Position numbers and translations under genes: made by a program | The notes under the pieces: generated by a model | Database searches by the model: none | Told to the model about the DNA's origin: nothing | Seen by the model: only the letters and a program-made list of their open reading frames with translations | From: an uncultured Trueperaceae bacterium | GTDB lineage: Bacteria > Deinococcota > Deinococci > Deinococcales > Trueperaceae | Length of the DNA: 64,000 nucleotides | Assembly (NCBI GenBank): GCA_963798895.1 | Contig: CAWCUY010000014.1 | Coordinates: 364,875 to 428,874, forward strand | Direction of reading: 5' to 3' | Shown here: in pieces, positions 5,343 through 61,250 of the stretch | Layout of the letters: each line of letters starts with the position of its first letter | How positions within the stretch are numbered: the first letter of the stretch is position 1

Positions 5343-5759
5343 ATGAGCATGCGAAGCTTCACCGTCGAGCTGGGTTCCCGCGAGCGCGGCGTACACCTGG
5401 TGACCCGCGACGTGCTCCAGGCCGTGGACATCGGCGGCGTCGACACCGGCCTGCTCCACCTGTTCCTGCAGCACACGTCGGCCGCCCTGGCGCTGGGCGA
5501 GAACGCATCGCCGGACGTGCGCGCCGACCTGGAGCGCTGGCTCCGCCGCCTGGCGCCGGACGGCGCAGACTACTTCGAGCACACCCTCGAGGGCCCCGAC
5601 GACATGCCGGCGCACGCCAAGGCGGTCGCGGTGGGCGCGTCGCTCACGTTGCCGGTCCGGCGCGGTGAGCTCGCGCTGGGGCGCTGGCAGGGGATCTACC
5701 TGTGCGAGTTCCGTCGCCGCGGAGGACCGCGCCGCGTCCTGGCGACCCTCGCCGCCTGA
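5343..5759 (+). CDS. YjbQ/UPF0047 family protein (secondary thiamine-phosphate synthase-like)
   Basis: 138 aa with the typical YjbQ family length and motifs; start set at the internal ATG ([10 protein letters not shown]). Confidence 0.7.
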
Positions 5760-5777
5760 GGCCGGTCGCCGCGGGCC

Positions 5778-7727: not shown

Positions 7728-7759
7728 GCTACCTCCTAAGGTGGCGTCGGCGAAGGCGC

Positions 7760-8494: not shown

Positions 8495-8533
8495 GGCGCG
8501 AGTATACGTGGAGCGGCGGCTCGGGCGCGCCGG

Positions 8534-9448: not shown

Positions 9449-9936
9449 GGCTCGAGCCCCAGCAGCGCCAGCGCGTGCCGCAGTCCCAGCAGGGTCACCC
9501 CGCTCGTCGCCAGCTCGCCGCGCGCCACGCGGCGCCAGGCGTCCTGGACGTCCAGCCATGCCACGCTGAGGTCTTCGTCCTCGTCGGGCTCGCCCTGCGC
9601 CGGCCGGAGGTCGGTCGCCTGGTACAGGTAGACGGCCTCGTCGCTGAACCCGGGCGACGCGTACAACCTCGTGACCGGCGTCATGGGGCCGTCGAGGCCG
9701 ACCTCCTCGGCGAGCTCCCTGTGGGCGGCCTGCTCGGGCGTCTCCCCGGGCTCGATGAGCCCTGCGGGGAGCTCCCAGGTCCGTCCGCCGATGGCGGGGC
9801 GCTCCTGGCGCACCCCCAGGGCCTCGCGGCCGCGGAGCGCGAGCACCGCCACGGCATCGGCGTGCTCGACCACCTCCCAGCGGTCGTCGAGCTTCGACAG
9901 CGTGAGGATCTTGCCGCGGTAGATCTCCTGACGCAT
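9445..9936 (-). CDS. NUDIX hydrolase (ADP-ribose pyrophosphatase-like)
   Basis: Nudix box GX5EX7REUXEEXGU is present (GLIEPGETPEQAAHRELAEEVGL); start set at the internal ATG (MRQEIYRGK). Confidence 0.75.
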   Translation of the reverse strand: MRQEIYRGKILTLSKLDDRWEVVEHADAVAVLALRGREALGVRQERPAIGGRTWELPAGLIEPGETPEQAAHRELAEEVGLDGPMTPVTRLYASPGFSDEAVYLYQATDLRPAQGEPDEDEDLSVAWLDVQDAWRRVARGELATSGVTLLGLRHALALLGLEP

Positions 9937-10080
9937 GCTCCTCCCGGGGCGCGCTCGGCGCCGCCGGTCAGCGTACCAGACGCGCGATGTTAGCGGTCGC
10001 GCCCGTCTTCGCGCGGGCCCCCGCGCGAGCGGCCGGGGCATTGGCCCCGGCCGCGGCTCGAGCACGAGGCAGGGGGCGGC

Positions 10081-11148
10081 TCAGTTCTCGCCGCTCTCGG
10101 GGTTGTAGCGCAGGAAGGCGGGGATGTCGTAGTTGCTCGGGTCGTAGCTGCGCCCGCCGGCGGCCGCGCGGAGGTGCGTCGGCCGCAGCACCTTCGTCTG
10201 CGGCGCGGAGTCGAAGCCCGCCGCGATGACGGTGACGCGCACCTCGTCGGCGGCATCCTCGTCGTAGGTGACGCCGAAGAGCACGTTGACGTCCTCGACC
10301 TCGGTCGCCTCGCTGATCTTCTCGACGATCTCGTGGGCGTCGAAGAGGGTGAGGTCCTCCGAGCCCGTGATGTTGATCAGCAGGTTGCGCGCCCCCTCCA
10401 CGCCCCGAGCGAGCAGCGGGCTGTGCGTGGCGGTGTTGGCCGCCTCGTCGGCGAGCTTCTCGCCGCGCCCGGCGCCGATCCCCATCAGGACGGTGCCGGC
10501 GCCCTGCAGCAGCGCCTTGACGTCGGCGAAGTCCACGTTGATCATGCCGGGCATGTTGATGACGTCGCTGATGCCGCGCACCCCGTGATACAGGACCCGG
10601 TCGGCGACACGGAAAGCGTCGGTGAGCTTGACCTTGCGATCGAGCGCGGAGAGCAGGCGCTGGTTCTCGACCACGATGAGGGCGTCGACCTTGTCCTCGA
10701 GCCGGCGCAGGCCGTCCTCGGCCTGGCGCATGCGCTTCGGACCCTCGAACAGGAACGGGCTGGTCACGACGGCGATGGTGAGCGCCCCGAGCTCGCGCGC
10801 CACCTCGGCCACCACCGGCGCGCTCCCCGTGCCCGTTCCGCCGCCCATGCCGGCGGTGATGAACACCAGGTCGCAGCCGCGCAGCGCCTCGCCGATGCGG
10901 TCACGGTCCTCCAGCGCGGCCTGCTCCCCGATCTCGGGGTTGGCGCCCGCGCCGAGTCCCTTGGTGATGTGGTCGCCCATCTGGATGCGGGTGTCGGCCA
11001 GGCTGGTGGCCAGGACCTGCGCGTCGGTGTTGGCGGCCACGAACTCCACGCCGCGCAGGCCGGTCTCGATCATGCGGTTGACGGCGTTGTTGCCACCACC
11101 GCCGAGTCCTATCACCCGTATGACCGCATTCTCGTTGCTCATGCTCAC
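10081..11148 (-). CDS. ftsZ: Cell division GTPase FtsZ
   Basis: GGGTGTG tubulin signature; 355 aa. Confidence 0.95.
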   Translation of the reverse strand: MSMSNENAVIRVIGLGGGGNNAVNRMIETGLRGVEFVAANTDAQVLATSLADTRIQMGDHITKGLGAGANPEIGEQAALEDRDRIGEALRGCDLVFITAGMGGGTGTGSAPVVAEVARELGALTIAVVTSPFLFEGPKRMRQAEDGLRRLEDKVDALIVVENQRLLSALDRKVKLTDAFRVADRVLYHGVRGISDVINMPGMINVDFADVKALLQGAGTVLMGIGAGRGEKLADEAANTATHSPLLARGVEGARNLLINITGSEDLTLFDAHEIVEKISEATEVEDVNVLFGVTYDEDAADEVRVTVIAAGFDSAPQTKVLRPTHLRAAAGGRSYDPSNYDIPAFLRYNPESGEN

Positions 11149-11181
11149 GTCCTCACCCTCCCCGTTGCCTGCCTGCTCGCC

Positions 11182-12420
11182 TCAGAAGAAGTCCTTCAAG
11201 ATATTGCGGATGCTGCCGAAGATCCCGCCCAGACGCCCCTCCTCCTTCACCGGTCGCGGCGCGGCGGGGACCGCGACCTGTTCCTGGGCCATGCCGAAGC
11301 GCACGAGGCCGACGGCGGTGGCGTGGGCTGGGCTGGCCACCACGTCCGCCAGGCCCGACACGCCTTCGGGCTTGCCGATGCGCACCGGCAAGCGGAAGCG
11401 GTCGGTCGCGACCTGCTCGATGCCGGGCATGAGCGACGCTCCGCCCGTGATGACGACGTTTCCCGCGAGGAGCTCGAGCGCCCCCATGCGTTGCTCGATG
11501 TTGCGCTTCACGAGGTCGAGGATCTCGACCACGCGCGGCTTGATGACCTGCGCCAGCTCGAACGTCGAGATCGACGCGGTGTACGAGGGGTTCGCGACCT
11601 CCAGCTCGACGTCGCGATCGGCCAGCTCGGGGAGGGCGACGCCGTAGCGCCGCTTGACGCGCTCGGCCTCGTCGGGCGGGATGCGCAGCAGCTGGCTGAT
11701 GTCCTGCGTGATGTGATCGCCGCCCAGCGGGATGACCGCCGAGTGCGCCAGCGTGCCGCGGCGGAAGACGCCCACGTCGGTGGTGCCGCCGCCGACGTCG
11801 ATGAGGAGCGTGGTCAGCTCCTGCTCCGCGGCCTGCAGCACGGCCAGGCCCGACGCGAGTGCCTGCACGACGAGCCCGTCGACCGCGACGTCGGCGTCGC
11901 TGGCGCAGCGCTTGAGGTTCTGCAGCGGCCCCTGCGCGCCGGCCACGATGTGCACGTCCACCTCGAGCCGCACGCCCGACATCCCCACCGGGTCCTTGAT
12001 GCCGTCGTTGCCGTCCACCACGTACTCCTGCGGGATGACGTGGATCATGTCCATGTTGGCCTCGAGCGGCACGGCCCGGGCGTTCTCGATGCAGCGCTCG
12101 ATGTCGGCCCGCGTGACCTGCTGGCCGCGACGGATGGCCGCCATGCCGTGGCTCGTGAGCGCCTTGAGGTGGCTCCCGGCCACGCCCACCCAGGCCGAGT
12201 GGACGGGCACGCCGGCGACCCGCTGGGCGGCCGCGATCGACTGGCGGACCGACGCGATGGTCCGCTCGAGATTGACCACGACGCCCTTTCGGAGCCCGTC
12301 GCTGGGGACCGTGCCCTCGCCGATGATGTCGAGAACGCCGTCGGCGGCGACCTCACCGATCACGGTGCAGATCTTGGTGGTCCCGATGTCGAGGCCGACG
12401 ATGATGCGTTCGTCACTCAT
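11182..12420 (-). CDS. ftsA: Cell division protein FtsA
   Basis: Actin-like ATPase beginning MSDERIIVGLDIGTTKI. Confidence 0.95.
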   Translation of the reverse strand: MSDERIIVGLDIGTTKICTVIGEVAADGVLDIIGEGTVPSDGLRKGVVVNLERTIASVRQSIAAAQRVAGVPVHSAWVGVAGSHLKALTSHGMAAIRRGQQVTRADIERCIENARAVPLEANMDMIHVIPQEYVVDGNDGIKDPVGMSGVRLEVDVHIVAGAQGPLQNLKRCASDADVAVDGLVVQALASGLAVLQAAEQELTTLLIDVGGGTTDVGVFRRGTLAHSAVIPLGGDHITQDISQLLRIPPDEAERVKRRYGVALPELADRDVELEVANPSYTASISTFELAQVIKPRVVEILDLVKRNIEQRMGALELLAGNVVITGGASLMPGIEQVATDRFRLPVRIGKPEGVSGLADVVASPAHATAVGLVRFGMAQEQVAVPAAPRPVKEEGRLGGIFGSIRNILKDFF

Positions 12421-24737: not shown

Positions 24738-25170
<433 letters not shown>

Positions 25171-48494: not shown

Positions 48495-49655
48495 ATGCGA
48501 GCCGAGAGTGTCGAGACCGTCGTGATCGGCGGCGGGCAGGCCGGACTGGCGGTCGGATACCACCTGCAGCGCCGCCGCCGCCCGTTCGCCATCCTGGACG
48601 CGTACGAGCGGGTCGGCGATGCCTGGCGCAAGAGGTGGGACTCGCTGCGGCTGTTCACGCCCGGCCGCTACGACGGTCTACCGGGGATGCCGTTCCCCGG
48701 GCCGCCCTCCGTCTACCCGACGAAGGACGAGGTGGCCGACTACCTGGAGGCGTACGCCCGCGGGTTCGAGCTCCCCGTCCGGACCGGCGTCCGTGTCCAA
48801 CGCCTGACGAGGGTCGACGACGCGTTCGACGTCTCCTGGCCGGGAGGCTCGCTCGAGGCCGAGAACGTGGTCGTCGCGACCGGGCCCTACGACCGGCCGC
48901 GCGTCCCGCCCTACGCGGGTGCGCTCGACGACGCGATCGTCCAGCTCCACGCCAAGGAGTACCGCAACCCGACGCAGCTCCGCGAGGGCGGCGTGCTGGT
49001 GGTGGGCGCGGGCAACTCGGGCGCGGAGATCTCCCTCGAGGCCGCACGCCACCGCCACCGGACGTGGTTGTCCGGGCGCGACACCGGACAGGAGCCCACG
49101 CGGGCGGGAACCGCAGCGGATCGCCTGTTCACCCCCGTCATGTGGTTCCTGGCGACGCGCGTGCTCACCGTCAGGACGCCGCTCGGGAGGAGGGTGCGCG
49201 ATCACTTCCTCGAGCCCCCGCGGGGGATCCCCCTGGGCCGCATCCGGCGCGGCGACTTCGCAGCCGCCGGCGTCGAGCGCGTGCCGCGGGTGCGGGGCGT
49301 GAGGGGCGGCGCGCCCCAGTTGGAGGACGGGACCGTGCTCGACGTGGCGAACGTCGTGTGGTGCACGGGGTTCAGCGCGGACCACGCCTGGATCGACCTT
49401 CCCCTGGCGCGCCGTCACGGGCTTCCGGTGAACGACAGGGGCGTCGTGGCGGACTGCCCCGGCCTGTACTTCGTGGGTCTCCCGTTCCAGTACTCCCTGA
49501 GCTCGGTACTGCTGGGCGGCGTGGGGCGCGACGCCGAGCACCTCGTGGACCACCTCGTGGACCATCGCGTTGCCGCGCGCTCCGAGCCGGGCGCGGGGAC
49601 GGCAACGGACCCGGGTAGCGGGCCCGGGGGAGACCTAGCTGCCGTCGACGGGTAG
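48495..49655 (+). CDS. FAD/NAD(P)-binding flavin monooxygenase-like oxidoreductase
   Basis: Two dinucleotide-binding motifs (VVIGGGQAG and VVGAGNSGAEIS); the stop codon lies in the first bases of direct-repeat copy 1. Confidence 0.75.
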   Translation: MRAESVETVVIGGGQAGLAVGYHLQRRRRPFAILDAYERVGDAWRKRWDSLRLFTPGRYDGLPGMPFPGPPSVYPTKDEVADYLEAYARGFELPVRTGVRVQRLTRVDDAFDVSWPGGSLEAENVVVATGPYDRPRVPPYAGALDDAIVQLHAKEYRNPTQLREGGVLVVGAGNSGAEISLEAARHRHRTWLSGRDTGQEPTRAGTAADRLFTPVMWFLATRVLTVRTPLGRRVRDHFLEPPRGIPLGRIRRGDFAAAGVERVPRVRGVRGGAPQLEDGTVLDVANVVWCTGFSADHAWIDLPLARRHGLPVNDRGVVADCPGLYFVGLPFQYSLSSVLLGGVGRDAEHLVDHLVDHRVAARSEPGAGTATDPGSGPGGDLAAVDG

Positions 49656-49936
49656 AGCTGGAGGGTGTGGACGTCGACGCGCGAGCTGCCGGCGCTGGCG
49701 AGGTAGGCGCGGACGGCAACGAGGTCCTCACCGCGCAGCGGGCTTCTGAGGACGTGGTGCAGGTCGCGCTCGGGTGGCGAGCAGCACGGTATCCCAATCC
49801 ACGAGGTGGCGGCTGCCGTCGGCGGAGCTCAGGACGTTGCCGGGGGGGCTCCCCGTGCGTCACCACCCAGTGTGTGTCGTCGAGCGCCAGGGGGCGGGAG
49901 CGAGCGTCGTACGCGCGGAGGCGTCGCTCGAGGGCC
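49651..49936 (-). pseudogene. Direct-repeat copy 1: frameshifted fragment of the phosphotransferase (APH-family) gene
   Basis: 286 bp with about 95% identity to 58668-58957; it encodes ...RRLRAYDARSRPLALDDTHWVVTHGEP and then loses frame through two small indels; it is not a full gene. Confidence 0.8.
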
Positions 49937-49963: not shown

Positions 49964-50797
49964 CTACCGCGGGGCGGCGCGCTCCTTGGCCTGGTGCGCT
50001 GCCGGGCCCGCCATCCGCCGAACGGCATCGATCGCGCTCAGGGCCGCCAGGAACGACGTGCGAGGGTTGTCGGGGTGCGGGTTCGAGAGTACCTCGACGC
50101 GGATCTCGGCCGCCTCGCCCAGAGCCACGATCTGGTGGCGCGTGCGCGTCGCCGACGGGTCCGACACGATGCGCACCGTGGTGCGGTCGGGGCCGACGCC
50201 CGCCAGGCTCAACGCCGCCGCCACGTTGACATTGGCGGGGAAGCCGCGGATCGCCTCGCGCGCCGTGCCCTCGAACACGGTGACGCTGCGGTCGGCGGGC
50301 AGCTCGATCGCGTTGTCCACCAGGTACGGCGCCCCGGCCAGGCCGCGCGGCGCCTTGGTGCTGGTGATCGACGCCTCCCGCAGCCCGCCCGTCGCCGCCA
50401 GCGCGCGCACCCCGTCCAGGCCGGCGATGCCGCCGCTCGGCAGCTCCACGCGGCCGCCCCGCCGCCGGCGCTCCTCGACCGCAGCCAGGAACGCGTCGTC
50501 CAGCAGCGCGCCGATGCTCATCAGGATCACGTCGATGCCCGCGTCGAGCAGCGGCAGCAGGTGGCTCCGCGCCGCCGGCACGCCGGCGGCCTCGAGCACC
50601 CAGTCGGGCTCGAGCTCCAGGATGCGCGACGGGTCGACGGCCGCGCTCCCGACGCGCGCGGCCACCGCCGCGGCGCGCTCCGAGTCCGCGCCGCGTCCGG
50701 CCACGCCCACCACGCGCACGCCCGGAAGGTGCCCGGCCGCCACCTCGGCGGCCACCTCGGCCCCGATGCCTCCGGCTCCCAGGATCGCCAGCTTCAT
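49964..50797 (-). CDS. Aspartate dehydrogenase-like NAD(P)-binding oxidoreductase (NadX/DUF108 family)
   Basis: MKLAILGAGGIG Rossmann N-terminus, 277 aa, AGGAGGAAGG ribosome-binding site. Confidence 0.65.
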   Translation of the reverse strand: MKLAILGAGGIGAEVAAEVAAGHLPGVRVVGVAGRGADSERAAAVAARVGSAAVDPSRILELEPDWVLEAAGVPAARSHLLPLLDAGIDVILMSIGALLDDAFLAAVEERRRRGGRVELPSGGIAGLDGVRALAATGGLREASITSTKAPRGLAGAPYLVDNAIELPADRSVTVFEGTAREAIRGFPANVNVAAALSLAGVGPDRTTVRIVSDPSATRTRHQIVALGEAAEIRVEVLSNPHPDNPRTSFLAALSAIDAVRRMAGPAAHQAKERAAPR

Positions 50798-50819
50798 ACC
50801 TTCCTCCTGACCATGTCGC

Positions 50820-51572
50820 CTACCTCCTGCCGCGCGTCCGTCGCGCCGCGCCCAGCCCGTGACTGATCCGGTCGGCGCATGCCCGCAGCGTCGGCACCAG
50901 GTCCCGCTGCCGCTCGGCCGTGATGAACTGCGTCGCGCCGCTCAGGCTCACCGCCGCGACCACCGCGTCGGCGGCGTCCACCACCGGGGCGGCCAGGCAA
51001 CGGATGCCGATCTCGTTCTCCTCCCGGTCGAAGGCGTACCCCTGCGCGCGAACGTCGTCCAGCTCCGCCAGGATCGCGTCGGGATCGGTGATCGAATAGT
51101 GTGTGCGCGGCTCGAGCCGCAGCAGCCGTCCGCGCGCCTCGCGGGGCGGCAGCGCCGCCAGCAGCACCTTCCCCATGGCGGTCGTCTGCGCCGGGGAGCG
51201 CAGCCCGACGTACGACGCCATCCGCAGGCCCCGCCCCCCGTCGACCTTCTCCAGGTACACCACGTGCGAGCCGTCCAGCTCGCCCAGGTGGACCGTCTCC
51301 GAGGTCTCCTCGGACAGCCGCATCATCGCGTCCCGCGCCACGTGCGGGAGCCTGAGCTCGCGCTTGACGCGCTCCCCCAGGTCCAGCAGCTTGTAGCCCA
51401 GCAGGTAGTCGTGGCCGTCGTGCCGCAGGTAGCCCCCTTCCAGCAGCGACTTCGCCAGCCTGTGCACGGTGCTCTTGGGCATGCTGCTGCGCTCCGCCAG
51501 GTCGTTCAGCGTGCGGGCACCGTCCGCCACCAGCTCCAGGATGGCGAGCGTCTTCTCGCTCGAACGGCTCAT
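50820..51572 (-). CDS. IclR-family transcriptional regulator
   Basis: N-terminal winged helix-turn-helix (TLNDLAERSSMPKSTVHRLAKSL) plus an IclR effector domain; divergent from the plus-strand catabolic operon. Confidence 0.85.
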   Translation of the reverse strand: MSRSSEKTLAILELVADGARTLNDLAERSSMPKSTVHRLAKSLLEGGYLRHDGHDYLLGYKLLDLGERVKRELRLPHVARDAMMRLSEETSETVHLGELDGSHVVYLEKVDGGRGLRMASYVGLRSPAQTTAMGKVLLAALPPREARGRLLRLEPRTHYSITDPDAILAELDDVRAQGYAFDREENEIGIRCLAAPVVDAADAVVAAVSLSGATQFITAERQRDLVPTLRACADRISHGLGAARRTRGRR

Positions 51573-51949
51573 CGTCCTCGCTCCCCGTCGCGTCGGATTC
51601 GCACGCGCGTCCTTCCCCCCCGTGGCCCGGCTCGTTCGCGTCGCTCGTGTCGACCGCGGCGTCGACGCAGGGTCGCCACCACCAACCGTTCCACATCTTG
51701 GAATCGTGTCCCGTATATTGACACGTTTTTCCGGCCGTGGCTATAGTGGCCCTACCGACAACCGATCATCGCATCCACCTGCGCCGGTTCGTGGCGCCCG
51801 TCGGTGCACCGACCCCAAGCCTCGGCACCCCGGCGGACGAACCGCGACCGGACGACGCCACGCGAACCCCAACGATCCCCGCTCCCACGCCCGCCGCGCC
51901 GTACCCCCCGCGCCCCCTGCGCGGACCGCCCCGCCCCCTGGGAGATCCC

Positions 51950-52999
51950 GTGAGCCACGCCACACCGACTCGCCCCCTCACGCGTCCGGACGTCCGCGCC
52001 CTGCTCGCCGCGCAGCCGCGCGTCAGCGTCGCCACCCTGCCCACCCCATTGCACGAGGCCGCGCGCCTGCGCGAGGAGCTCGGCGGCCCGCGCATCTTCC
52101 TCAAGCGCGAGGACATGACCGGCTACGCCTTCGGGGGCAACAAGACGCGCAACCTCGAGTTCCGCCTCGCGCACGCCGTGGCCGAGCGCGCCGACGTGCT
52201 GATCATGGCCCTCGAGATCACCTCGAACTCGGCGCGGCAGACGGTGGCGGCCGCCAACAAGCTGGGCATGCGAACGGTGCTGGTGCTGCGCGGCGAGAGG
52301 CCCGCCACCATCCAGGGCAACCTCCTCGTCAACTACCTGCTGGGCGCCGAGGTGAACTACGCCGCCGACGGTGACGAGCGCGAACGCATCATCGCCGAGG
52401 TCGCCGAGCGCGTACGCGCCTCGGGCCGCAAGCCGATGGTCCTCACCAGCGAGCCCATCTTCGACATCGGCTCGGCGCTCGCCTACCTCGAGTGCTCGGT
52501 CGAGCTGCTCGACCAGCTCGAGGCGCAGGGCGCCAGCCCCGACTTCCTGTACATGACCTCGGGCGGCAAGGGGCAGGCCGGCCTGGTGCTCGCCCAGAAG
52601 CTGCTCGACGCCCCCTACGCCGTCCACGGCGTGACCGTCAGCTACGAGTACGACGTCCCACCGCGCACCGCGCGTATTGCCACCGACGCCGCCCGCCACC
52701 TAGGCCTCGACCTTACGGTCGAGCCCTCCGACGTCGTCAACTTCGCCGACTTCGTCGGTCCCGGCTACGGTATCCCCACCGACGACGCCTACGCCGCCAT
52801 GGAGCTCATGGCGCGGACCGAGGGGGTGATCCTCGACCCGATCTACACCGGCAAGTGCTTCGCCCAGCTCGTCCACCACGTGCGGACGGGCGTCATCGCG
52901 GAGGACGCCACCGTCGTCTTCATCCACACCGGCGGCACGCCCGCCATCTTCTCCCACGCCGAGGCGATCCTCGCGCACCTCGACGCCGCCCGCCCGTAA
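51950..52999 (+). CDS. PLP-dependent ACC deaminase / D-cysteine desulfhydrase family enzyme
   Basis: Fold-type II PLP family (KREDMTGYAFGGNKTRNLEF...); start set at a GTG preceded by GGGAGA, discarding about 70 aa of Pro-rich upstream frame. Confidence 0.78.
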   Translation: MSHATPTRPLTRPDVRALLAAQPRVSVATLPTPLHEAARLREELGGPRIFLKREDMTGYAFGGNKTRNLEFRLAHAVAERADVLIMALEITSNSARQTVAAANKLGMRTVLVLRGERPATIQGNLLVNYLLGAEVNYAADGDERERIIAEVAERVRASGRKPMVLTSEPIFDIGSALAYLECSVELLDQLEAQGASPDFLYMTSGGKGQAGLVLAQKLLDAPYAVHGVTVSYEYDVPPRTARIATDAARHLGLDLTVEPSDVVNFADFVGPGYGIPTDDAYAAMELMARTEGVILDPIYTGKCFAQLVHHVRTGVIAEDATVVFIHTGGTPAIFSHAEAILAHLDAARP

Positions 53000-53025
53000 C
53001 GCCCCCACCCAAGGAGGAGGACCCC

Positions 53026-54639
53026 GTGACACGACCGCTCCACGCCGCCACCACCCTCGCCAGACGCCTGCTGCTCACGCTGCTGCTCATCGCCGGCGCG
53101 GCCACCGCGCTCGCCCAGGACGGAGGCAAGACCCTCACGTTCGCGCAAAGCGTGGCCGTGACCGACCTCGGGCCCGCCTACGGCGCGTTCCTCAACTACC
53201 CGGCAGGGTACGAGGTCGCCTTCGTGCTGTACGACCGCCTGGTCACCTTCGACCCCGAGCTGAACATCGTCCCGCAGCTCGCCACCTCGTGGGAGACCTC
53301 GGAGGACGGCCGCACCTGGACCTTCCACCTGCGTGAGGGCGTGACCTTCCACGACGGCACGCCGTTCAACGCCGACGCCGTCAAGTTCAACGTCGAGCGC
53401 ATGCTCGACCCCGAGCGCAACACCACCAACCGGCCCATCTGGAGCCCCATCTCGGGCGCGAACGTAGTCGACGACCTGACGGTCCAGATCACCACCACCG
53501 AGCCCTACGCCATGCTCCTGAACACCCTGGCGCACGGCTCGGGCGCGATGGTCAGCCCCACCGCGATCGAGAAGAACGGCGACGAGAGCATGACCACCAA
53601 CCCGGTGGGGGCGGGACCCTACATGCTCGAGTCGTTCAACCCCGGCCAGGAGGTCGTGCTCAAGGCCTACGACGGGTACTGGGGCGGCAAGCCGGCGCTC
53701 GACCGGATCGTATTCCAGTACGTGCCCGAGGCCTCGACCCGCGTCTCCGCCCTGCGCTCGGGCAAGGTCGACGTGATCGACTCCGTGTCGCCGCAGCTGG
53801 CGCAGTCGCTCGAGAGCGACCCCAACGTGACCGTCCTGTCCAAGCCCGGGCTGCGTCCCATGGGCTTCGCGATCATGATGAACCACCCGCCGCTGGACGA
53901 TCCGGCCGTGCGCCAGGCGCTCAACTACGCCACCCCGCGGGAGGCCATCGCAGACAAGATCTTCCGCGGCTACGCCCAGAACTCCGATTCCCCGCTGGCC
54001 TTCAACACCTTCGGCCACAAGAGCATCGGCGGCTACGAGTACGACCCCGAGAAGGCCAAGAGCATGCTGGCCGACGCCGGCTGGACCGACAGCAACGGCG
54101 ACGGCGTGCTCGACAAGGACGGCAAGGACCTGAAGCTGACGATGTACACGCCCGAGGGGCTGTTCCCCGCCGATGTCGACATCGCCGAGGTGACGGCCAA
54201 GTCGCTGCAGGACATCGGCATCGGCGTCGACATCGTCAAGATCGAGAAGGGCGGCTACTGGGACACGCTGCGCCTGCCGCGTGACGAGCTGAAGTGGGAC
54301 ATCGCCATGTTCGGCTTCAACCCGTCGAACGCTGGCGGCACCTACCACATGGACTCGCTCTTCAGCGCCAACCCCGACCCGGCCGCGACGCCGGTGGCGT
54401 GGAACATCACCCGCTACGACAACGCCGAGGTGACCGACCTCATCGACCAGGCCAAGGTCACGATCGACCCGACGAAGCGCGCCGACCTGCTGGGCCGCGC
54501 GCAGGAGATGGTGTGGAACGACGCGCCCTACATCTGGCTGCAGGTGAACGAGGTCGTCTCGGCCACGCGCAGCGACGTGTCGGGCGTCGAGGTGTGGCCC
54601 ATCATCTTCACGGTCGTGCGCAACGCCACCAAGCCGTAA
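53026..54639 (+). CDS. ABC transporter substrate-binding protein, family 5 (peptide/opine/nickel type)
   Basis: GTG start preceded by AAGGAGGAGG; signal peptide; SBP_bac_5 fold. Confidence 0.85.
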   Translation: MTRPLHAATTLARRLLLTLLLIAGAATALAQDGGKTLTFAQSVAVTDLGPAYGAFLNYPAGYEVAFVLYDRLVTFDPELNIVPQLATSWETSEDGRTWTFHLREGVTFHDGTPFNADAVKFNVERMLDPERNTTNRPIWSPISGANVVDDLTVQITTTEPYAMLLNTLAHGSGAMVSPTAIEKNGDESMTTNPVGAGPYMLESFNPGQEVVLKAYDGYWGGKPALDRIVFQYVPEASTRVSALRSGKVDVIDSVSPQLAQSLESDPNVTVLSKPGLRPMGFAIMMNHPPLDDPAVRQALNYATPREAIADKIFRGYAQNSDSPLAFNTFGHKSIGGYEYDPEKAKSMLADAGWTDSNGDGVLDKDGKDLKLTMYTPEGLFPADVDIAEVTAKSLQDIGIGVDIVKIEKGGYWDTLRLPRDELKWDIAMFGFNPSNAGGTYHMDSLFSANPDPAATPVAWNITRYDNAEVTDLIDQAKVTIDPTKRADLLGRAQEMVWNDAPYIWLQVNEVVSATRSDVSGVEVWPIIFTVVRNATKP

Positions 54640-54651
54640 CCTCTCGCCTTC

Positions 54652-54690
54652 ATGCTCCGGGCTCCCGCGCCACGCGGGAGCCCGGAGCAT
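54652..54690. promoter_or_regulatory. Perfect 18-bp-stem hairpin between the SBP and permease genes
   Basis: Sequence ATGCTCCGGGCTCCCGCG-CCA-CGCGGGAGCCCGGAGCAT. Confidence 0.6.
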
Positions 54691-54702
54691 GACGAAGGAC
54701 CC

Positions 54703-55623
54703 ATGCTGACCTACGCGCTCTGGCGCCTCGCCAGGATCCTCCCCGTGGCCCTCATCGTGGTCACGCTCATCTTCTTCCTGTTCCGCATGGTCCCCGGCGA
54801 TCCGGCGCGCGCCATCGCCGGGCCGCAGGCGTACGAGGACGCCATCGAGCAGATCCGCCACGAGCTCGGCCTGGACCGACCGCTGCTCGTGCAGTACGGC
54901 GAATACATCGCCGGTATCTTCCGCGGCGACCTCGGCTACTCCGGCATCTACCGCGGCAACACCGCCCCCGTCATCCTCCAGCACCTCCCGCCCACCCTGG
55001 CGCTGCTCGGCGCCGCCATGCTCCTCACCGTGCTGGTGGGGATCCCGTCTGGCGTGCTGGCGGCGGTCTTCCGCAACGGCCCCATCGACTACGCGATCAG
55101 CTTCTTCGTCGTGAGCATGCTCTCCGTCCCCAACTTCTGGCTCGGGATGATGCTCATCACGCTGTTCTCGGTCACGTACCGGGTGCTGCCGTCGTACGGT
55201 TTCGACAGCTGGACCGCCCTGGTGCTTCCCACCGTCGCGGTAAGCGCGAGGCTGGTCGCGGTGATCACGCGCATGATGCGTTCGAGCATGCTCGAGGTGC
55301 TGGGCCTCGACTACGTCCGCACCGCCCGCGCGAAGGGGCTGGCCGGGGGCGGCGTGGTCCTGAAGCACGCCATGCGCAACGCGCTCGTGCCCACCATCAC
55401 CACGCTGGGCTTGCAGGCGGGCTACCTGCTGGGCGGCTCCATCGTCATCGAGCGGCTGTTCGCCTGGCCCGGCGTCGGGCAGCTCATGATCAACTCGGTG
55501 GGCCTGCGCGACTTCAACATGGTGCAGGGCATCACCATCGTGTTCTCCGTCGGCTTCCTGCTCATCAACCTGCTCGTCGACCTCATCTACGCGTGGGCGA
55601 ACCCGCGCATCCAGTACGCATGA
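54703..55623 (+). CDS. ABC transporter permease (DppB/OppB-like)
   Basis: 6-TM BPD_transp_1 domain; GAAGGA ribosome-binding site. Confidence 0.85.
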   Translation: MLTYALWRLARILPVALIVVTLIFFLFRMVPGDPARAIAGPQAYEDAIEQIRHELGLDRPLLVQYGEYIAGIFRGDLGYSGIYRGNTAPVILQHLPPTLALLGAAMLLTVLVGIPSGVLAAVFRNGPIDYAISFFVVSMLSVPNFWLGMMLITLFSVTYRVLPSYGFDSWTALVLPTVAVSARLVAVITRMMRSSMLEVLGLDYVRTARAKGLAGGGVVLKHAMRNALVPTITTLGLQAGYLLGGSIVIERLFAWPGVGQLMINSVGLRDFNMVQGITIVFSVGFLLINLLVDLIYAWANPRIQYA

Positions 55624-56582
55624 CGCCCGACCCGAGCTTGCCCGGCGGCGGCTCCGCCGACCCCGCCGGGCCGGCCGGGGACGGTTCCGTGAACGCGGTC
55701 CCCCACGGCGCGGCGGCCGCCACCGTAGCGCCCGCCATCCGCGGCCCGCGGCCCCGCTGGCGACGCACGCTGCGACGCGCGCTGCGCAACCCCAACCTGA
55801 TGTTCGGGGCGGCGGTGCTGCTGCTCTACCTGGTGCTTGCGTTGCTCGGTCCCGCCCTCGCGCCCTACGGCGTCGACGACCAGGACCTGTTCAGCTCGCT
55901 CATCGGCCCCACCCGGGAGCACCTGCTGGGCACCGACTCGATCGGCCGCGACCTGCTCAGCCGCGTCATCGTGGGCACGCGCTACTCGCTCTCGATCGCG
56001 GTGCTGTCGGTGCTGTTCGGTTCGCTGCTGGGGATCCCGGTGGGGCTGCTGGCCGGCTTCTTCGGCGGCCGCACCGACTCGCTGCTGATGGGCTTCATCG
56101 ACATCCTCCTCACCATCCCGGTCATCGTGCTGGCCATCGCCATCGTCACGGTGATGGGACCCGGCATGGTCGGCCTCGTCACCGCCATCGCCATCAGCTT
56201 CGCGCCGCGCCTGGCGCGCCTGACACGCGGCAGGGTGTTCGAGGTGAAGGAGGAGGTGTTCGTCAGCGCCGCCACCGCCCTGGGCGGCAGCGTGATACGC
56301 ATCCTTGGCCGGCACGTGCTGCCGAACGCGTTCGCGCCGCTCATCATCGAGATCACCCTGCGCGCCGGCCAGGCGGTGCTGGTGGGCGCGGCCCTGGGCT
56401 TCCTCGGGCTGGGCGTGCAGCCCCCCACCCCCGAGTGGGGCACCATGCTCAGCCGCGGTCGCGAGTACCTCGAGATCGCGCCGCACGTGGTGGTGGCCCC
56501 CGGGCTCGCCATCTCGCTGCTGGTGCTCGGATTCAACCTGTTCGGCGACGGCCTGCGCGACGCGTGGGACCCGAGCCGCTGA
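55620..56582 (+). CDS. ABC transporter permease (DppC/OppC-like)
   Basis: ATG overlaps the upstream stop (ATGA); N-terminal extension followed by the permease core. Confidence 0.85.
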   Translation: MTPDPSLPGGGSADPAGPAGDGSVNAVPHGAAAATVAPAIRGPRPRWRRTLRRALRNPNLMFGAAVLLLYLVLALLGPALAPYGVDDQDLFSSLIGPTREHLLGTDSIGRDLLSRVIVGTRYSLSIAVLSVLFGSLLGIPVGLLAGFFGGRTDSLLMGFIDILLTIPVIVLAIAIVTVMGPGMVGLVTAIAISFAPRLARLTRGRVFEVKEEVFVSAATALGGSVIRILGRHVLPNAFAPLIIEITLRAGQAVLVGAALGFLGLGVQPPTPEWGTMLSRGREYLEIAPHVVVAPGLAISLLVLGFNLFGDGLRDAWDPSR

Positions 56583-56618
56583 CGCGCCCGGACGTCCCGG
56601 GGCCTGGAGGGCCACCCC

Positions 56619-57767
56619 ATGATCCACGTCTCCCGCTTCGAGCGCCCCTTCCGCGTGATCGACGCCCACGCGCACGTGCTGCCCTACTTCGGCAGCGCCG
56701 CCGGCTTCGCCTCGCCGGAGGAGCACCACCTCTACATGCAGCGCGCGATGCACACGCACGGCTCGCAACCGGTGCGGCGCGCGCGCGACCACGCGGTGGT
56801 GCGCGAGCCGACGCTGTGGGACCCCGACGACCCCACGCCGGGGGGCCGCTACGACGTCGACTTCCGGGTGGGCCGCAACGGCCGCTTCGAGTGGACGAAG
56901 GACGGCGAGGACTACTACCTGCAGTTCATGCCCGTCACGCTGCAGACGATGGAGGCGCCCGTCCAGTTCCATGTCGACCAGATGGACGCCGTCGGGGTGG
57001 ACGCGTCGGTGCTGCAGAACGACCACATCTACGGCAGCCTCAACGCGTTCTTCGCCGACGCCGTGGCGCAGCACCCGCAGCGCTTCCTCGGCTGCATCCA
57101 GGTGGAGGAGGCGCGCGCCTTCGAAGACGCGCAGATCGCGCGGCTGCGGCGCGGGGTGGAGGAGCAGGGCCTGCGCGGCCTGTACTTCACCACCAGCACG
57201 TTCTTCACGACCGGCTACCGGCCGTACTACGACGAGGCGGTCTTCGAGCCGTTCTGGCGCGAGGTCGAGGCGCTCGACCTGCCGGTCTTCTGGGTGTTCC
57301 CCACCTCGGGGCCGATCGGCGATTTCGCGGAGGAGATGCGCCGCTTCCGCGGTTGGTACGAGCGCCATCCCGCGCTGCGCTCCGTGCTCGTCCATGGGGT
57401 GCCCGACCCGCCCTTCCTGGACCCCGAAGGGCGATTGGCGCTGGCGCCGTGGATGGTGGAGCTGTTCGAGGCGTTCCCGCTGTACGCGGAGATCCTCTAC
57501 CCGCTGCGGTGGGGCGGCGTGTGGGACTACCCCTACCCCCAGGCGTTCGACCGGATCCGGATGTACCGCGACATGCTCGGGAGCGAGCGCCTGGTGTGGG
57601 GCTCGGACATGCCCAACGTGGAGCGCTACTGCAGCTATCGCCAGGCCCTCACCTACCTGACGGAGTACTGCGACTTCCTGTCCGAGGAGGAGCTGCGCCG
57701 CATCCTGTCGGAGAACGCGCTGTCGCTCTTCCGCGATCCGTTCCCGCGGGCGGGGGGCGCACCGTGA
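56619..57767 (+). CDS. Amidohydrolase-2 family (TIM-barrel metal-dependent hydrolase/decarboxylase)
   Basis: N-terminal IDAHAHV metal-binding motif; 382 aa. Confidence 0.72.
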   Translation: MIHVSRFERPFRVIDAHAHVLPYFGSAAGFASPEEHHLYMQRAMHTHGSQPVRRARDHAVVREPTLWDPDDPTPGGRYDVDFRVGRNGRFEWTKDGEDYYLQFMPVTLQTMEAPVQFHVDQMDAVGVDASVLQNDHIYGSLNAFFADAVAQHPQRFLGCIQVEEARAFEDAQIARLRRGVEEQGLRGLYFTTSTFFTTGYRPYYDEAVFEPFWREVEALDLPVFWVFPTSGPIGDFAEEMRRFRGWYERHPALRSVLVHGVPDPPFLDPEGRLALAPWMVELFEAFPLYAEILYPLRWGGVWDYPYPQAFDRIRMYRDMLGSERLVWGSDMPNVERYCSYRQALTYLTEYCDFLSEEELRRILSENALSLFRDPFPRAGGAP

Positions 57768-58228
57768 GTGCGCGCGAGCGCCTGGCGTCGATGGGGCTCA
57801 CGCTGCCACAACCCCCGAACCCGGTCGCGACGTACCTGCCCGTGGTCGTGGTCGACGGCCTGGCGTACGTCTCGGGCCAGGGCCCGACGCGCAACGGGGA
57901 GCCCGTGGTGCGCGGCAAGGTGGGGGCCGAGGTGAGCCTGGAGGAGGGCTACGAAGCCGCCAGGCTGTGCGCGCTGAACGCGCTGGCGGCGCTCGAGGAC
58001 GCGCTGGGCTCGCTGGAGCGCATCGAGCGCTTCGTGAAGCTGCTCGGGTTCGTGGCGAGCGCGCCCGGCTTCGGCGAGCAGCCGCGCGTGATCAACGGCG
58101 CGTCGGACCTGCTGGTCGAGATCTTCGGCGAGGCGGGCAGGCACGCGCGCAGCGCCTTGGGCACGAGCCAACTGCCCTTCGACATCCCCGTCGAGATCGA
58201 GCTCCTCGTGAGGGTACGCGGGCGTTGA
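57764..58228 (+). CDS. ridA: RidA/YjgF family reactive enamine/imine deaminase
   Basis: ATYLPVVVVDGLAYVSGQGP and C-terminal RSALGTSQLPFDIPVEIE signatures; GTG overlaps the upstream stop. Confidence 0.85.
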   Translation: MSARERLASMGLTLPQPPNPVATYLPVVVVDGLAYVSGQGPTRNGEPVVRGKVGAEVSLEEGYEAARLCALNALAALEDALGSLERIERFVKLLGFVASAPGFGEQPRVINGASDLLVEIFGEAGRHARSALGTSQLPFDIPVEIELLVRVRGR

Positions 58229-58548: not shown

Positions 58549-59574
58549 CTAGCCCGCGAGTCCGGAGCGGAGGGCGCCGAACGCGGTCCTGACGTCCGGC
58601 GTGCGTTCGTGCGGGGCCCGGATGTGGGTGATGGCGGTGGAAACGTCCGTGAGGGTCCATCGGTCGCGGTAGTGCTGGAGGGTGTGGACGTCGACGCGCG
58701 AGCTGCCGGCGCTGGCGAGGTAGGCGCGGACGGCAACGAGGTCCTCGCCGCGCAGTGGGCTTCTGAGGATGTGGTGCAGGTCGCGCTCGGGTGGGGCGAG
58801 TAGCACGGTATCCCAATCCACGAGGTGGCGGTTGCCGTCGGCGGAGCGCAGGACGTTGCCGGGGTGGGGCTCCCCGTGCGTCACGACCCAGCGTGTGTCG
58901 TCGAGCGCCAGGGGGCGGGAGCGAGCGTCGTACGCGCGGAGGCGTCGCTCGAGGGCCCCGCGGCGAGCGAGCAGCAGCGCGCGCGCCGGTTCCGCGAAGG
59001 GGCCGCTCGGCCAGGGATGGCCGAGGTCCGCCAGCGCCGCCTCGAGCGGCTCCCGCGCTTGGAGCGCGAAGTCCTCGCGCGCAGGGAGCGTCAGGCCGGC
59101 TCCCGCCAGCGCCGCCGTGGCCGCATGGAGCCGGCCGACCAGTTCGGCCAGGAGTCGCCGCTCCGATGCGTCGCGTGGGGCCCCGAAGGTGCCGGCCCTG
59201 CCGTCCACCCACGGCTGCAACGACACGGCGAAGCGCGGCCCGAGTCGACGCACGACGCTTCCGCCTGCGCCGCGCACGGGGGCCGTGACGAACGGCAACG
59301 CCGTCCCAACGGCGGGGTCGCGAAGCGCCACCGCGACGGCGAACGCCCGCTCGAGCGCCGCGAAGGCGCTGTCCGGATCCGGCGCCGCCTGGACCGGCGC
59401 GTCGAGATCGTGGACGGTGACGAAACGGGGCTGGCCGCGCTCGTCGAGGGCCCGCCAGTGGTGGCCCCCGAACCCGACGGGTAGGTAGTGCAGGTCGTGC
59501 ACCGCCAGGCCCCAGCCCGCCGCGAGCGCTGCGGCGAGGTCGGCGGGCGAGAGCTCCGGTGGCGGCGTGTTCAT
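58549..59574 (-). CDS. Phosphotransferase enzyme family protein (APH / aminoglycoside-kinase-like fold)
   Basis: 341 aa; the HGEPHPGNVL...VDWDT catalytic-loop region is typical of the APH/ChoK kinase family. Confidence 0.72.
   Translation of the reverse strand: MNTPPPELSPADLAAALAAGWGLAVHDLHYLPVGFGGHHWRALDERGQPRFVTVHDLDAPVQAAPDPDSAFAALERAFAVAVALRDPAVGTALPFVTAPVRGAGGSVVRRLGPRFAVSLQPWVDGRAGTFGAPRDASERRLLAELVGRLHAATAALAGAGLTLPAREDFALQAREPLEAALADLGHPWPSGPFAEPARALLLARRGALERRLRAYDARSRPLALDDTRWVVTHGEPHPGNVLRSADGNRHLVDWDTVLLAPPERDLHHILRSPLRGEDLVAVRAYLASAGSSRVDVHTLQHYRDRWTLTDVSTAITHIRAPHERTPDVRTAFGALRSGLAG
58668..58957. repeat. Direct-repeat copy 2, the intact copy lying inside the APH coding sequence
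   Basis: About 95% identical to 49651-49936. Confidence 0.85.
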
Positions 59575-60245: not shown

Positions 60246-61250
60246 ATGGCCGCCACCGAACGCTTCCGGATCGAACGCTTCCAGGGCGACGCGCTCGCCC
60301 GCGCGGAGTCCTGGGCGACCCTCGCGCCCGACGACCTGAAGCGCCGCGCGGCCCGCGCCGCCAACGCGCGCGACGGCGATGACCTCTGGGCGCTCACCGA
60401 AGCGTACCTCTTCCTGCACGGCTCCAAGGGCGCCCGCGTCAGCAAGCACACGCTGCGCACCTACAAGCGCGGCCTCGAGGACCTGCTCGCCGCGTGGCCG
60501 CACGAGAACCTGTTGAGGCCCGGGCGGGATGCCGGGGTGCTGTACATCCGGCGACTCGAGGCGACGCCGGTGCCCGGGAGCGACGCCCCGCCGCAGGCCG
60601 CCACGCTGCAGGTCAAGCTGGCCGCCGCCCGCACGCTGTACCGGGCGCTGCGCTGGTCCGGCGCCACCGAGGCGCGTCCGTTCGAGAACGTGCGCGTCGC
60701 CAAGGACCCCACGCCGCCGTGGGAGAAACGCCGCCCGTACGGCGAGCGCGAGATCGAGGCGCTGCTCGAGCTGGGCGACGAGGCCGAGCGCGTCATCGCG
60801 CTGCTCGGCGCCCACGCCGGCCTTCGGATCGGCGAGATGGCCGCCCTGGAGTGGTCCGACGTCGACCTGCCGTCTGGGCGCCTGCACGTGCGCGACGGCA
60901 AGGGCGGCAAGAGCGGTTTCGTGCGGATGACGCGCCGCTTGCGCGACGCGTTGCGGGACCTGCGGGCCGCAGGGGCCGCCCCGCACCGTCAGCGCGACGC
61001 GGCGCTGGTGCTCCCATGGGGGGCGGACCACTGCCGCAAACGGTTCCGCGACCTGTGCAGCAGAGCCGGCGTCGACTACGACTCCGCGGGCGTCCACGGC
61101 CTCCGGCACGGCGCGGGCACGCGCTACTACCGTCAGACGCACGACCTCGGCCGCGTCGCAGCGCACCTGCGGCACGCCGACATCCAGACCACGCGCATCT
61201 ACGCAAAGATCGACGAAGCGGCCGTCGGCGAGGACATCGAGGACTGGTAG
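60246..61250 (+). CDS. Tyrosine-type site-specific recombinase / integrase
   Basis: N-terminal SAM-like domain (SKHTLRTYKRGLEDLL); catalytic R (GLRIGEMAALEW), HxxR (HGLRHGAGT) and Y (TTRIYAKI) motifs. Confidence 0.85.
   Translation: MAATERFRIERFQGDALARAESWATLAPDDLKRRAARAANARDGDDLWALTEAYLFLHGSKGARVSKHTLRTYKRGLEDLLAAWPHENLLRPGRDAGVLYIRRLEATPVPGSDAPPQAATLQVKLAAARTLYRALRWSGATEARPFENVRVAKDPTPPWEKRRPYGEREIEALLELGDEAERVIALLGAHAGLRIGEMAALEWSDVDLPSGRLHVRDGKGGKSGFVRMTRRLRDALRDLRAAGAAPHRQRDAALVLPWGADHCRKRFRDLCSRAGVDYDSAGVHGLRHGAGTRYYRQTHDLGRVAAHLRHADIQTTRIYAKIDEAAVGEDIEDW

Follow-up and report, generated by a model that had tools for sequence, protein, structure and literature searches.

What does a group of catabolic genes degrade when its enzymes all come from known superfamilies and the group itself matches no described pathway? 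This question is raised by a block of eight genes at 49964-58228 of a 64,000-nucleotide stretch of DNA (the window) from an uncultured Trueperaceae bacterium (contig CAWCUY010000014.1, positions 364,875 to 428,874), in which genes for an IclR-family regulator and an aspartate dehydrogenase-like (AspDH-like) protein diverge from an operon encoding a pyridoxal phosphate (PLP) enzyme, a solute-binding protein, two ATP-binding cassette (ABC) permeases, an Amidohydro_2 enzyme (the amidohydrolase) and a Rid-family protein. An initial annotation had put the block forward as a candidate catabolic module, and it proved to be single, regulated and intact; both its gene content and its outer coordinates were found to be correct when families were assigned with Pfam and NCBIfam and coding frames were chosen by third-position G+C (GC3), a measure used because the G+C content of the window is about 70-76%. 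We describe here a real, conserved and uncharacterised catabolic module whose logic has precedents. Import, hydrolysis and PLP-dependent elimination very probably make up one functional unit, and we put at about 0.45 the probability that the operon serves a carboxylate-bearing nutrient of the amino-sugar-acid type, that is, a 2-amino-2-deoxy-aldonate-type compound such as D-glucosaminate.

The unity of the module is best seen in its conservation. A word-indexed search returned more than 1000 homologues of the amidohydrolase at E<=1e-10, and an exhaustive search of 1.84 billion representatives showed that they form a compact clade of 90 clusters at 50% identity (E<=1e-30). When one genome was scanned for each GTDB species, 389 relatives came to light, the best 80 loci of which were examined by tblastn table; together with a metagenome scan, 160 loci were fetched (individual loci, from these scans and elsewhere, are cited below by their L numbers), 66 of which, with at least 5 kb of upstream flank, were used for synteny counts and 62 for counts of ATPase genes. 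A PLP gene, whose product was 51-58% identical to that of the window, lay within 6 kb of the amidohydrolase gene in 60 of the 66, and the full order PLP enzyme-binding protein-permease-permease-amidohydrolase was kept at nearly constant spacing in 58, a recurrence that places the arrangement far from chance and supports the view of a single module. The carriers belong to Alpha- and Betaproteobacteria, Rokubacteria, Methylomirabilota, Trueperaceae and Chloroflexota, the metagenome scan being in agreement, and the core order is conserved in at least six phyla. Cultured strains are among them, for example Mesorhizobium sp. L-8-3, Nitratireductor arenosus CAU 1489, Aquibium pacificus LZ166, Devosia sediminis MSA67 and Microvirga sp. 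M2. Since the binding protein (50-64% identity across phyla) is as conserved as the enzymes (about 50%), these comparisons argue for a single substrate shared across phyla. The transporter is missing in Gemmatimonadota, Latescibacterota and some Chloroflexota, and in L013, L016, L086, L090, L166 and L174 the amidohydrolase and PLP genes are paired without it; as the pairing persists without the transporter, we consider these two enzymes to be the functional heart of the module. Clustering of the flanking open reading frames (ORFs) disclosed no further conserved enzymes beyond the core, ATPases, Rid proteins and regulators, and the minor recurrent neighbours (an amidase, an enolase-family gluconate/galactonate dehydratase and a 2-hydroxyacid dehydrogenase) were restricted to particular clades. 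In the PLSDB plasmids, the 8.3-kb DNA query produced two trivial matches of 90 bp and the amidohydrolase protein none at 1e-40, so well-studied plasmids lack the family. Searches of the literature on glucosaminate, chitin oxidation, ammonia-lyases, D-cysteine desulfhydrase and cog3618 retrieved analogous pathways only and no description of the cluster; this, and the failure of the PLP enzyme and the amidohydrolase to reach any NCBIfam equivalog cutoff, bear out the initial judgement that no known pathway matches.

The nearest solved structures to the PLP enzyme were the D-cysteine desulfhydrases 7ysk (2e-55) and 4d8t (1e-46), followed by 1-aminocyclopropane-1-carboxylate (ACC) deaminases. Its best NCBIfam scores were far from the respective cutoffs: 267 bits for CuyA and 257 for XcbE (450 in both cases), 194 for DcyD (429, in a range of 429-610 for the DcyD equivalogs) and 152.4 for the ACC deaminase model TIGR01274 (392). 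The PLP lysine lies within GGNKTR, and the desulfhydrase-type motifs DPIYTGK and HTGG, aligned with 4d8t, are invariant in 34 members of the subfamily. An alignment to 1rqx shows Thr and Thr at the positions of ACC deaminase residues Glu295 and Leu322 (Pseudomonas numbering; motifs Y-E-G-K and H-L-G-G) and, because desulfhydrases have the same pair, the enzyme is not an ACC deaminase; its homologues should not be counted as such in plant-growth-promotion surveys. With DcyD, AcdS and CuyA (TIGR01275 superfamily) the window enzyme has in common the fold, the PLP lysine and the desulfhydrase-type Tyr-Thr and His-Thr-Gly-Gly motifs, but it is set apart by the missed cutoffs, by its linkage to a novel amidohydrolase and by its own subfamily-invariant motifs SNSARQ and SGGKGQAG, so that subfamily placement gives a separate group with desulfhydrase-type residues. 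In addition, the substrate loop Q-S-N-H of DcyD reads T-S-N-S, with a Ser invariant in the subfamily at the position of desulfhydrase His80, a replacement that would enlarge the pocket. Enzymes of this family act on D-configured amino acids by alpha,beta-elimination, passing through an aminoacrylate-type enamine, which Rid proteins hydrolyse, and D-glucosaminate has the D-configuration at C2 and a 3-OH group. We propose, from these motifs, that the enzyme may be an ammonia-lyase that works by alpha,beta-elimination on an alpha-amino-beta-hydroxy (sugar) acid of D-configuration.

The amidohydrolase has the TIM-barrel fold of its superfamily, with HxH in strand 1, His in strand 6 and Asp in strand 8, and keeps the metal and catalytic set H17, H19, H259 and D330. 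Its AlphaFold model, built with 117 sequences (pLDDT 94.6, pTM 0.93), was closest to L-fucono-1,5-lactonase BmulJ_04915, which we take to be PDB 4dlf, with decarboxylases and hydratases nearly as close in fold; the cog3618 sugar lactonases of Amidohydro_2 (BmulJ_04915, LigI) are hence its nearest known systems. The alignment covers 269 of the 382 residues; it leaves unmatched an insertion of about 110 residues in which invariant Arg, His and Trp abound. The characterised PF04909 enzymes known to us comprise lactonases, decarboxylases, hydratases, a C-C hydrolase and oxygenases. By analogy with this family, the amidohydrolase most likely provides a hydrolytic "unmasking" step, which would be the opening of a lactone by family precedent, with deacylation as an alternative role. 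The initial annotation had named a pseudogene state of this enzyme and the PLP enzyme as an observation that would speak against its reading, but both are intact, the PLP enzyme with its lysine and cofactor motifs and the amidohydrolase with its catalytic residues and every residue invariant in 117 homologues. In the Gemmatimonadota loci L017, L018 and L026, an amidohydrolase orthologue (about 52% identical) is flanked by DUF4159, a major facilitator superfamily (MFS) transporter and a D-2-hydroxyacid dehydrogenase, with genes for a UxuA-like protein, an aldose epimerase and an SGSH_C sulfatase close by but none for a PLP enzyme in view, and the amidohydrolase may serve a second pathway there.

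The binding protein was closest, among solved structures, to 5u4o, GsiB/YliB, DppA and AgaA. The importer had been called "peptide-type", which is a family label and gives no evidence for a peptide substrate. The absence of ABC ATPase genes that had been noted was confirmed for the whole 64 kb, since neither a Walker-A/LSGGQ motif scan nor tblastn with the DppD/F proteins of relatives found one, adjacent or distant, that might have been overlooked. It is not a special trait of this locus: DppD/F genes directly follow the amidohydrolase gene in 34 of the 62 loci and are absent in 28, of which 23 have none within 10 kb, and other SBP_bac_5 operons without ATPases occur in Trueperaceae. The window thus shares the family-5 binding protein and the DppB/C-like permeases with importers of the Dpp, Gsi and Nik type, but lacks the two oligo_HPY ATPase genes, as do about 45% of the homologous loci, and those that have them place the enzyme gene between the permease and ATPase genes. 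The ATPases would be shared with another Dpp/Opp system elsewhere in the genome.

As for the Rid protein, the family had been recognised correctly, but it is of the PF14588 type and not an archetypal RidA. Its closest solved structures were PDB 3d01 and 9bk9 (PA0814; 1e-36, 129 bits) and also ACIAD3089, and both PA0814, with 2-aminoacrylate/imine deaminase activity, and ACIAD3089 are Rid1 proteins (PMC5619798). Its motif ...GRHARSALG...VEIELL, read without a curated alignment, is consistent with the conserved Arg and Glu. Relatives carry at the operon end either this type or a PF01042 RidA. The PLP and Rid genes had been placed next to each other, whereas they open and close the operon, respectively, and are 4.8 kb apart; the reasoning that pairs a PLP enzyme with a Rid protein is sound all the same, as the clustering of D-cysteine desulfhydrase with RidA or Rid1 genes is documented (PMC4433059).

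With no member of the core characterised, the main clue to the substrate comes from the variable genes that accompany it in relatives, and this comparison of gene neighbourhoods pointed to a sugar-acid route, a reading absent from the initial annotation. In L006, genes for the amidohydrolase, a zinc-dependent alcohol dehydrogenase (Zn-ADH), a PfkB kinase (KdgK/IolC-like) and a Rid protein follow one another closely, at spacings of -4 to 20 nt, and the IclR gene has as its neighbour a gene for an Eda aldolase scoring above the TIGR01182 cutoff. In L093/L102, the amidohydrolase gene is followed by genes for a PfkB protein (best match a haloarchaeal kinase of 2-keto-3-deoxygluconate (KDG) and 2-keto-3-deoxygalactonate (KDGal), 275 bits), an RraA-like protein, a PF07071 DgaF-type aldolase of 2-keto-3-deoxy-phosphogluconate (KDGP, or KDPG) and RidA. 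Zn-ADH and RidA genes follow the core in L096 and L007, and in L095 the gene for a PIG-L/CE14 deacetylase overlaps the start of the PLP gene by 4 nt, with a NamZ exo-muramidase and a sugar ABC system upstream. The presence of two unrelated aldolase families and two Rid types at equivalent positions suggests a requirement of the pathway rather than chance. Another arrangement was observed in L013 (a Gemmatimonas metagenome-assembled genome (MAG), 2572-7154) and L016 (a Latescibacterota MAG, 4951-9353), which have no ABC transporter and share an alkaline-phosphatase-superfamily gene (PF01663) between the amidohydrolase and PLP genes; L013 has a GFO/IDH/MocA dehydrogenase gene in the same interval and L016 a nitrilase-family gene after the PLP gene. 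It may be a variant for a phosphorylated or sulfated precursor.

The block itself contains a single promoter of note. A scan of 8.9 kb gave two sites against 0.3 expected from shuffling, and the one in front of the PLP gene is the only strong sigma-70-type promoter, the other being a weaker, overlapping 9/12 site (51690-51719). In an alignment of five Deinococcota-like loci, its -35 and -10 hexamers were invariant or nearly so, and a palindrome just upstream of the -35 was conserved in register as GTyCCA-N6-yGrrAy, which makes it a plausible candidate for the IclR operator; an inverted-repeat finder reported nothing at its thresholds in the intergenic region, and the palindrome emerged only from the five-locus comparison. 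The window IclR protein scored best with KdgR (170.7 bits), PcaR (164) and BhcR (151), always below cutoff. An IclR gene occupies the same position in L006, L007, L093, L096 and L010, and the regulators found in relatives are IclR, RpiR/SIS (best match the KDPG sensor HexR, 218 bits, below cutoff) or TetR proteins. The similarity to KdgR and HexR lends weak support to a sugar-acid route. The leader (51754-51949), of about 195 nt, is unusually long compared with the 75-85 nt or so of relatives, matched no Rfam riboswitch, and is open in frame with the PLP gene from a GTG at 51737, the resulting Pro/Ala-rich stretch not being conserved in homologues.

From these data we infer the following scheme, in which the substrate, the catalytic steps and the borrowing of ATPases go beyond the gene content, conservation, motifs, fold and promoter described above. 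An amino sugar acid, whether free, lactonised or conjugated, would be imported by the binding protein and the two permeases, powered by DppD/F-type ATPases encoded elsewhere. The amidohydrolase would then free the alpha-amino acid, by ring-opening of the lactone according to precedent or by N-deacylation, and the PLP enzyme, by the established chemistry of its family, would eliminate the C3 substituent (3-OH) of this putative substrate to give an enamine/imine. The Rid1-type protein, with the activity of its subfamily, would hydrolyse the latter to a 2-keto-3-deoxy-aldonate (KDG or KDGal) and ammonium. Finally, a PfkB kinase would phosphorylate the product and a KDPG-type aldolase would split it, both being encoded in the operon in close relatives and presumably elsewhere in this genome. 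The IclR protein would control the TTGACA-N18-TATAGT promoter through the adjacent conserved palindrome. Two forms of the scheme can be considered. Either the amidohydrolase opens a lactone made by a sugar 1-dehydrogenase, which fits its fold and the dehydrogenase genes of the Deinococcota-like loci, or it removes an acyl or other masking group, which fits a Dpp-type binding protein that recognises carboxylates. The latter suits the roughly 60 loci without a linked dehydrogenase, because the core would then be self-sufficient.

Several observations weigh against an amino-sugar-acid substrate. Its deduction draws only on gene neighbourhoods in a few Deinococcota-like relatives. No linked kinase, aldolase or dehydrogenase was seen in any of the approximately 60 proteobacterial and Rokubacteria loci (a search of the proteobacterial loci for SDR/Rossmann motifs of short-chain and other dehydrogenases yielded no consistent candidate), and there is no kinase or aldolase within the 64-kb window. 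If the amidohydrolase is a lactonase, the oxidation that forms the lactone is unaccounted for in those 60 or so loci, and a free lactone is an unlikely nutrient; if it is a deacylase, we know of no PF04909 member that acts as an N-deacylase or amide hydrolase. The top family score of the PLP enzyme is with the sulfo-lyase CuyA. The nearest solved relatives of the binding protein bind glutathione, dipeptides, nickel complexes and agropinic acid, and SBP_bac_5 proteins are not typical binders of monosaccharide acids. Furthermore, the AspDH-like gene has no place in the scheme, and the KdgR and HexR scores, besides being below cutoff, are barely above those of PcaR, BhcR and AlsR.

Some of these difficulties would disappear if the imported compound were a conjugate of a D-amino acid (dipeptide-like or N-acyl, with D-Ser, D-Cys or a beta-substituted D-Ala) that is cleaved and beta-eliminated to pyruvate, ammonia and sometimes H2S, with the Rid protein removing 2-aminoacrylate. 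The PLP enzyme is nearest to true D-cysteine desulfhydrases, with which it shares motifs and whose genes cluster with RidA or Rid1 (PMC4433059), the transporter is of a peptide family, and, pyruvate being a central metabolite, no further enzymes are needed, as befits the 60 or so bare loci; a persulfide-dioxygenase/rhodanese cluster next to the AspDH-like gene in L093 also points this way. We nevertheless regard it as rather unlikely, for it leaves unexplained the PfkB gene of L006, the PfkB and KDGP aldolase genes of L093, the PIG-L gene of L095 and the RpiR/SIS regulators, it requires of PF04909 a peptidase or acylase, of which we know none, and it sits uneasily with the missed DcyD cutoffs and the invariant Ser in place of His80. 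The CuyA (267 bits) and XcbE (257) scores, higher than that of DcyD (194), suggest in turn an organosulfonate or sulfated amino compound, in which case a CuyA-like sulfo-lyase would free sulfite from a cysteate-type acid released by the amidohydrolase from an imported conjugate, and SGSH_C sulfatase genes are indeed found upstream in L008/L009 and several Gemmatimonadota loci. Yet the 450-bit CuyA cutoff is far off, the loci examined contain no sulfite exporter, sulfite dehydrogenase or other sulfonate gene, the Gemmatimonadota sulfatase loci have no PLP gene and their synteny may reflect relatedness, and the kinase and aldolase context is again left aside, all of which makes this explanation improbable.

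The AspDH-like gene would find a function if, in this lineage, the operon worked in the manner of the beta-hydroxyaspartate cycle: the PLP enzyme would dehydrate a 3-hydroxy-aspartate-type acid to iminosuccinate, to be converted into L-aspartate by the AspDH-like protein (as by BhcD) or into oxaloacetate by the Rid protein. AspDH catalyses the interconversion of iminoaspartate and aspartate, the window IclR reaches 151 bits with BhcR, and the RraA-like protein of L093 belongs to a family of oxaloacetate decarboxylases and aldolases. We consider this very improbable, and it cannot be the core function because the core almost always lacks AspDH: the gene is missing from 160 loci with the same core and a 50-64% identical binding protein. 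Moreover, the amidohydrolase, the PfkB kinases and the KDPG aldolases would be without explanation, and BhcB is of a different PLP subfamily. Release of ACC by the amidohydrolase from a conjugate such as malonyl-ACC, or uptake of ACC itself, followed by deamination, is scarcely credible; although the PLP enzyme is in the same protein family as ACC deaminase and a Dpp-type importer would be apt for an N-acyl amino acid, the Thr/Thr pair and the TIGR01274 score (152 against 392) speak against it. An amino-sugar-acid substrate remains our preferred reading.

The initial annotation had included the AspDH-like ("NadX-like") dehydrogenase in the module, and this part did not stand. The gene was absent from all 160 loci of the genome and metagenome scans, and its association with the module is confined to the window and L093/L102, where AspDH is also beside the IclR gene but in a different genomic setting (70% identity to the window for the PLP enzyme and 53% for AspDH). 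The protein just exceeds the cutoff of the NF009828 subfamily (179.4 against 177), misses all equivalogs (TIGR03855, 161.7 against 206.6) and matches PDB 2dc1 at 3e-26. Its Trueperaceae homologues are solitary or close an operon for an amidase and an M24 peptidase. The gene is a lineage-specific accessory in a catabolic context, not one of NAD biosynthesis, and its role may be either an oxidative step, for which relatives have Zn-ADH or GFO-type enzymes, or the handling of aspartate and ammonia. In the Trueperaceae loci L099-L101 (about 2660-11773), an SBP_bac_5-permease-permease operon without ATPase continues with genes for an unknown 387-aa protein, an amidase, an M24/creatinase-like peptidase, an AspDH-like protein (57% identical to that of the window) and GntR. 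In this lineage a place at the end of a catabolic operon that releases nitrogen is recurrent for AspDH-like genes. In L093 (254-3401), the genes directly beside AspDH encode a persulfide-dioxygenase/rhodanese fusion, an MFS transporter and an ArsR-rhodanese regulator, which may be a coincidence or a hint of sulfide release.

The features of the block are listed in Table 1. All eight genes are intact, and identical gene calls are recorded on three other contigs carrying the same DNA. The AspDH-like gene lies 22 nt downstream of iclR on the same strand, and 377 nt separate iclR from the divergent operon. Of the five junctions, only those between the two permease genes and between the amidohydrolase and Rid genes show the tight 4-nt overlaps reported initially, the others being gaps of 26-63 nt. 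A 300-aa ORF overlapping iclR (50794-51696) was rejected as spurious, since GC3 and Pfam showed that it is in the wrong frame.

Table 1. Genes, repeats and regulatory sites of the block, in window coordinates
Feature	Coordinates	Strand	Evidence
AspDH-like NAD(P) dehydrogenase, 277 aa	49964-50797	-	Pfam Asp_DH_C 1e-31, NAD_binding_3
IclR-family transcriptional regulator, 250 aa	50820-51572	-	Pfam IclR_C 2e-48, HTH_IclR
Candidate IclR operator, imperfect palindrome GTTCCA-N6-TGGAAT	51688-51704	+	Five-locus comparison
Operon promoter TTGACA-18-TATAGT	51718-51747	+	11/12 consensus positions
Fold-type II PLP enzyme, ACC-deaminase/D-Cys-desulfhydrase family, 349 aa	51950-52999	+	Pfam PALP 1e-33
Family-5 (Dpp/Opp/Nik-type) solute-binding protein with signal peptide	53026-54639	+	SBP_bac_5 2e-104
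ABC permease 1, DppB/GsiC-like	54703-55623	+	BPD_transp_1, BPD_transp_1_N; gene call in L001
ABC permease 2, DppC/GsiD-like	55620-56582	+	BPD_transp_1, OppC_N; gene call in L001
Divergent Amidohydro_2 enzyme, 382 aa, ~110-residue insertion	56619-57767	+	Weak Pfam match, 84 bits
Rid-family imine/enamine deaminase, Rid1-like, 154 aa	57764-58228	+	PF14588 3e-26, PF01042
Left direct-repeat copy, decayed internal APH-like fragment	49651-49936	.	Repeat search, pairwise alignment
Right direct-repeat copy, within intact APH-like gene	58668-58957	.	Repeat search, alignment; Pfam APH

A repeat search and pairwise alignment showed that exactly these eight genes are bracketed by a direct repeat of 286-290 bp with sharp ends and about 95% identity. 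The right copy is contained in an intact APH-like gene (58549-59574, minus strand), and the left one is a frameshifted internal fragment of such a gene with two 2-bp deletions. G+C content is lower in the centre of the block (0.67-0.71 against 0.73-0.77), where the GC skew is also persistently negative, and a tyrosine integrase gene (60246-61250) lies 2 kb away. The repeat, composition, skew and integrase suggest that the whole block, with the AspDH-like gene, was probably gained as one unit, in keeping with the patchy distribution of the module across phyla. A flavin monooxygenase gene (ArsO/MSMEG_0569-like, below cutoffs; 48495-49655, plus strand) ends exactly at the start of the left repeat. 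The window also contains a full-length bacterial class A RNase P RNA (24739-25163, minus strand, 233.6 bits) and therefore represents chromosomal housekeeping territory.

A broader proposal, possible but on the whole doubtful, is that the module represents a hitherto unrecognised route, shared by several phyla, for amino sugar acids such as D-glucosaminate together with its lactone or N-acyl precursors, in which the ACC-deaminase-fold enzyme would be the long-sought non-phosphorylative 2-amino-2-deoxy-aldonate ammonia-lyase, the Amidohydro_2 clade with the 110-residue lid would supply its substrate, and a Dpp-type importer would have been recruited. The precursors would derive from oxidised chitin, chitosan or glucosamine. 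If the substrate is assigned correctly, two sizeable unannotated enzyme subfamilies, whose current labels ("D-cysteine desulfhydrase/ACC deaminase-like" and "amidohydrolase family protein") are misleading, would receive a function. The module would then be a trait for carbon and nitrogen acquisition common in soil and aquatic Alphaproteobacteria, Rokubacteria, Gemmatimonadota and Deinococcota MAGs. Whatever the substrate, it offers a clean and testable target made up of two enzymes, a binding protein and a regulator with a mapped candidate operator.

Among known systems, the closest in logic is the Ong pathway of Pseudoalteromonas prydzensis, which degrades N-acetyl-D-glucosaminate (GlcNAc1A) from chitin oxidised by lytic polysaccharide monooxygenases (PMC9537276). 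There, the deacetylase OngB is followed by the PLP deaminase OngC, which forms KDG and ammonia in a water-independent manner, the essential RidA-family protein OngD and KdgK, under an RpiR repressor (PMC9537276). The proposed scheme matches it step for step, OngB is also of the amidohydrolase superfamily, and proteobacterial versions of the module have an RpiR regulator as well. However, no enzymes are homologous: OngC is of fold-type III and the window enzyme of fold-type II (PF00291), OngB is a D-aminoacylase and not a PF04909 Amidohydro_2 protein, and uptake by an SSS-family symporter and TonB receptors contrasts with the Dpp-type ABC system. Of the RidA-family and KDG kinase genes of the Ong cluster, the window has a Rid gene, and the kinase is found only in the relatives L006 and L093. 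The likeness is thus one of convergence, not of membership. A similar oxidative glucosamine route, with a CE14 deacetylase, glucose dehydrogenase, IclR and a RutC/Rid-type protein, has been predicted for natronoarchaea (PMC12343721). The dgaABCDEF system of Salmonella also ends in a 2-keto-3-deoxy-(phospho)gluconate split by an aldolase (DgaF), the likeness being confined to the aldolase family (a weak DgaF-family (PF07071) match in L093), but it uses a phosphotransferase system and acts on the 6-phosphate, whereas the window has no such system and the kinase would apparently act after deamination. The D-glucosaminate ammonia-lyase of that system, DgaE, has an unrelated PLP fold. Should our preferred reading be right, the module would join Ong and Dga as a third way, unrelated to them by homology, of achieving glucosaminate-type catabolism.

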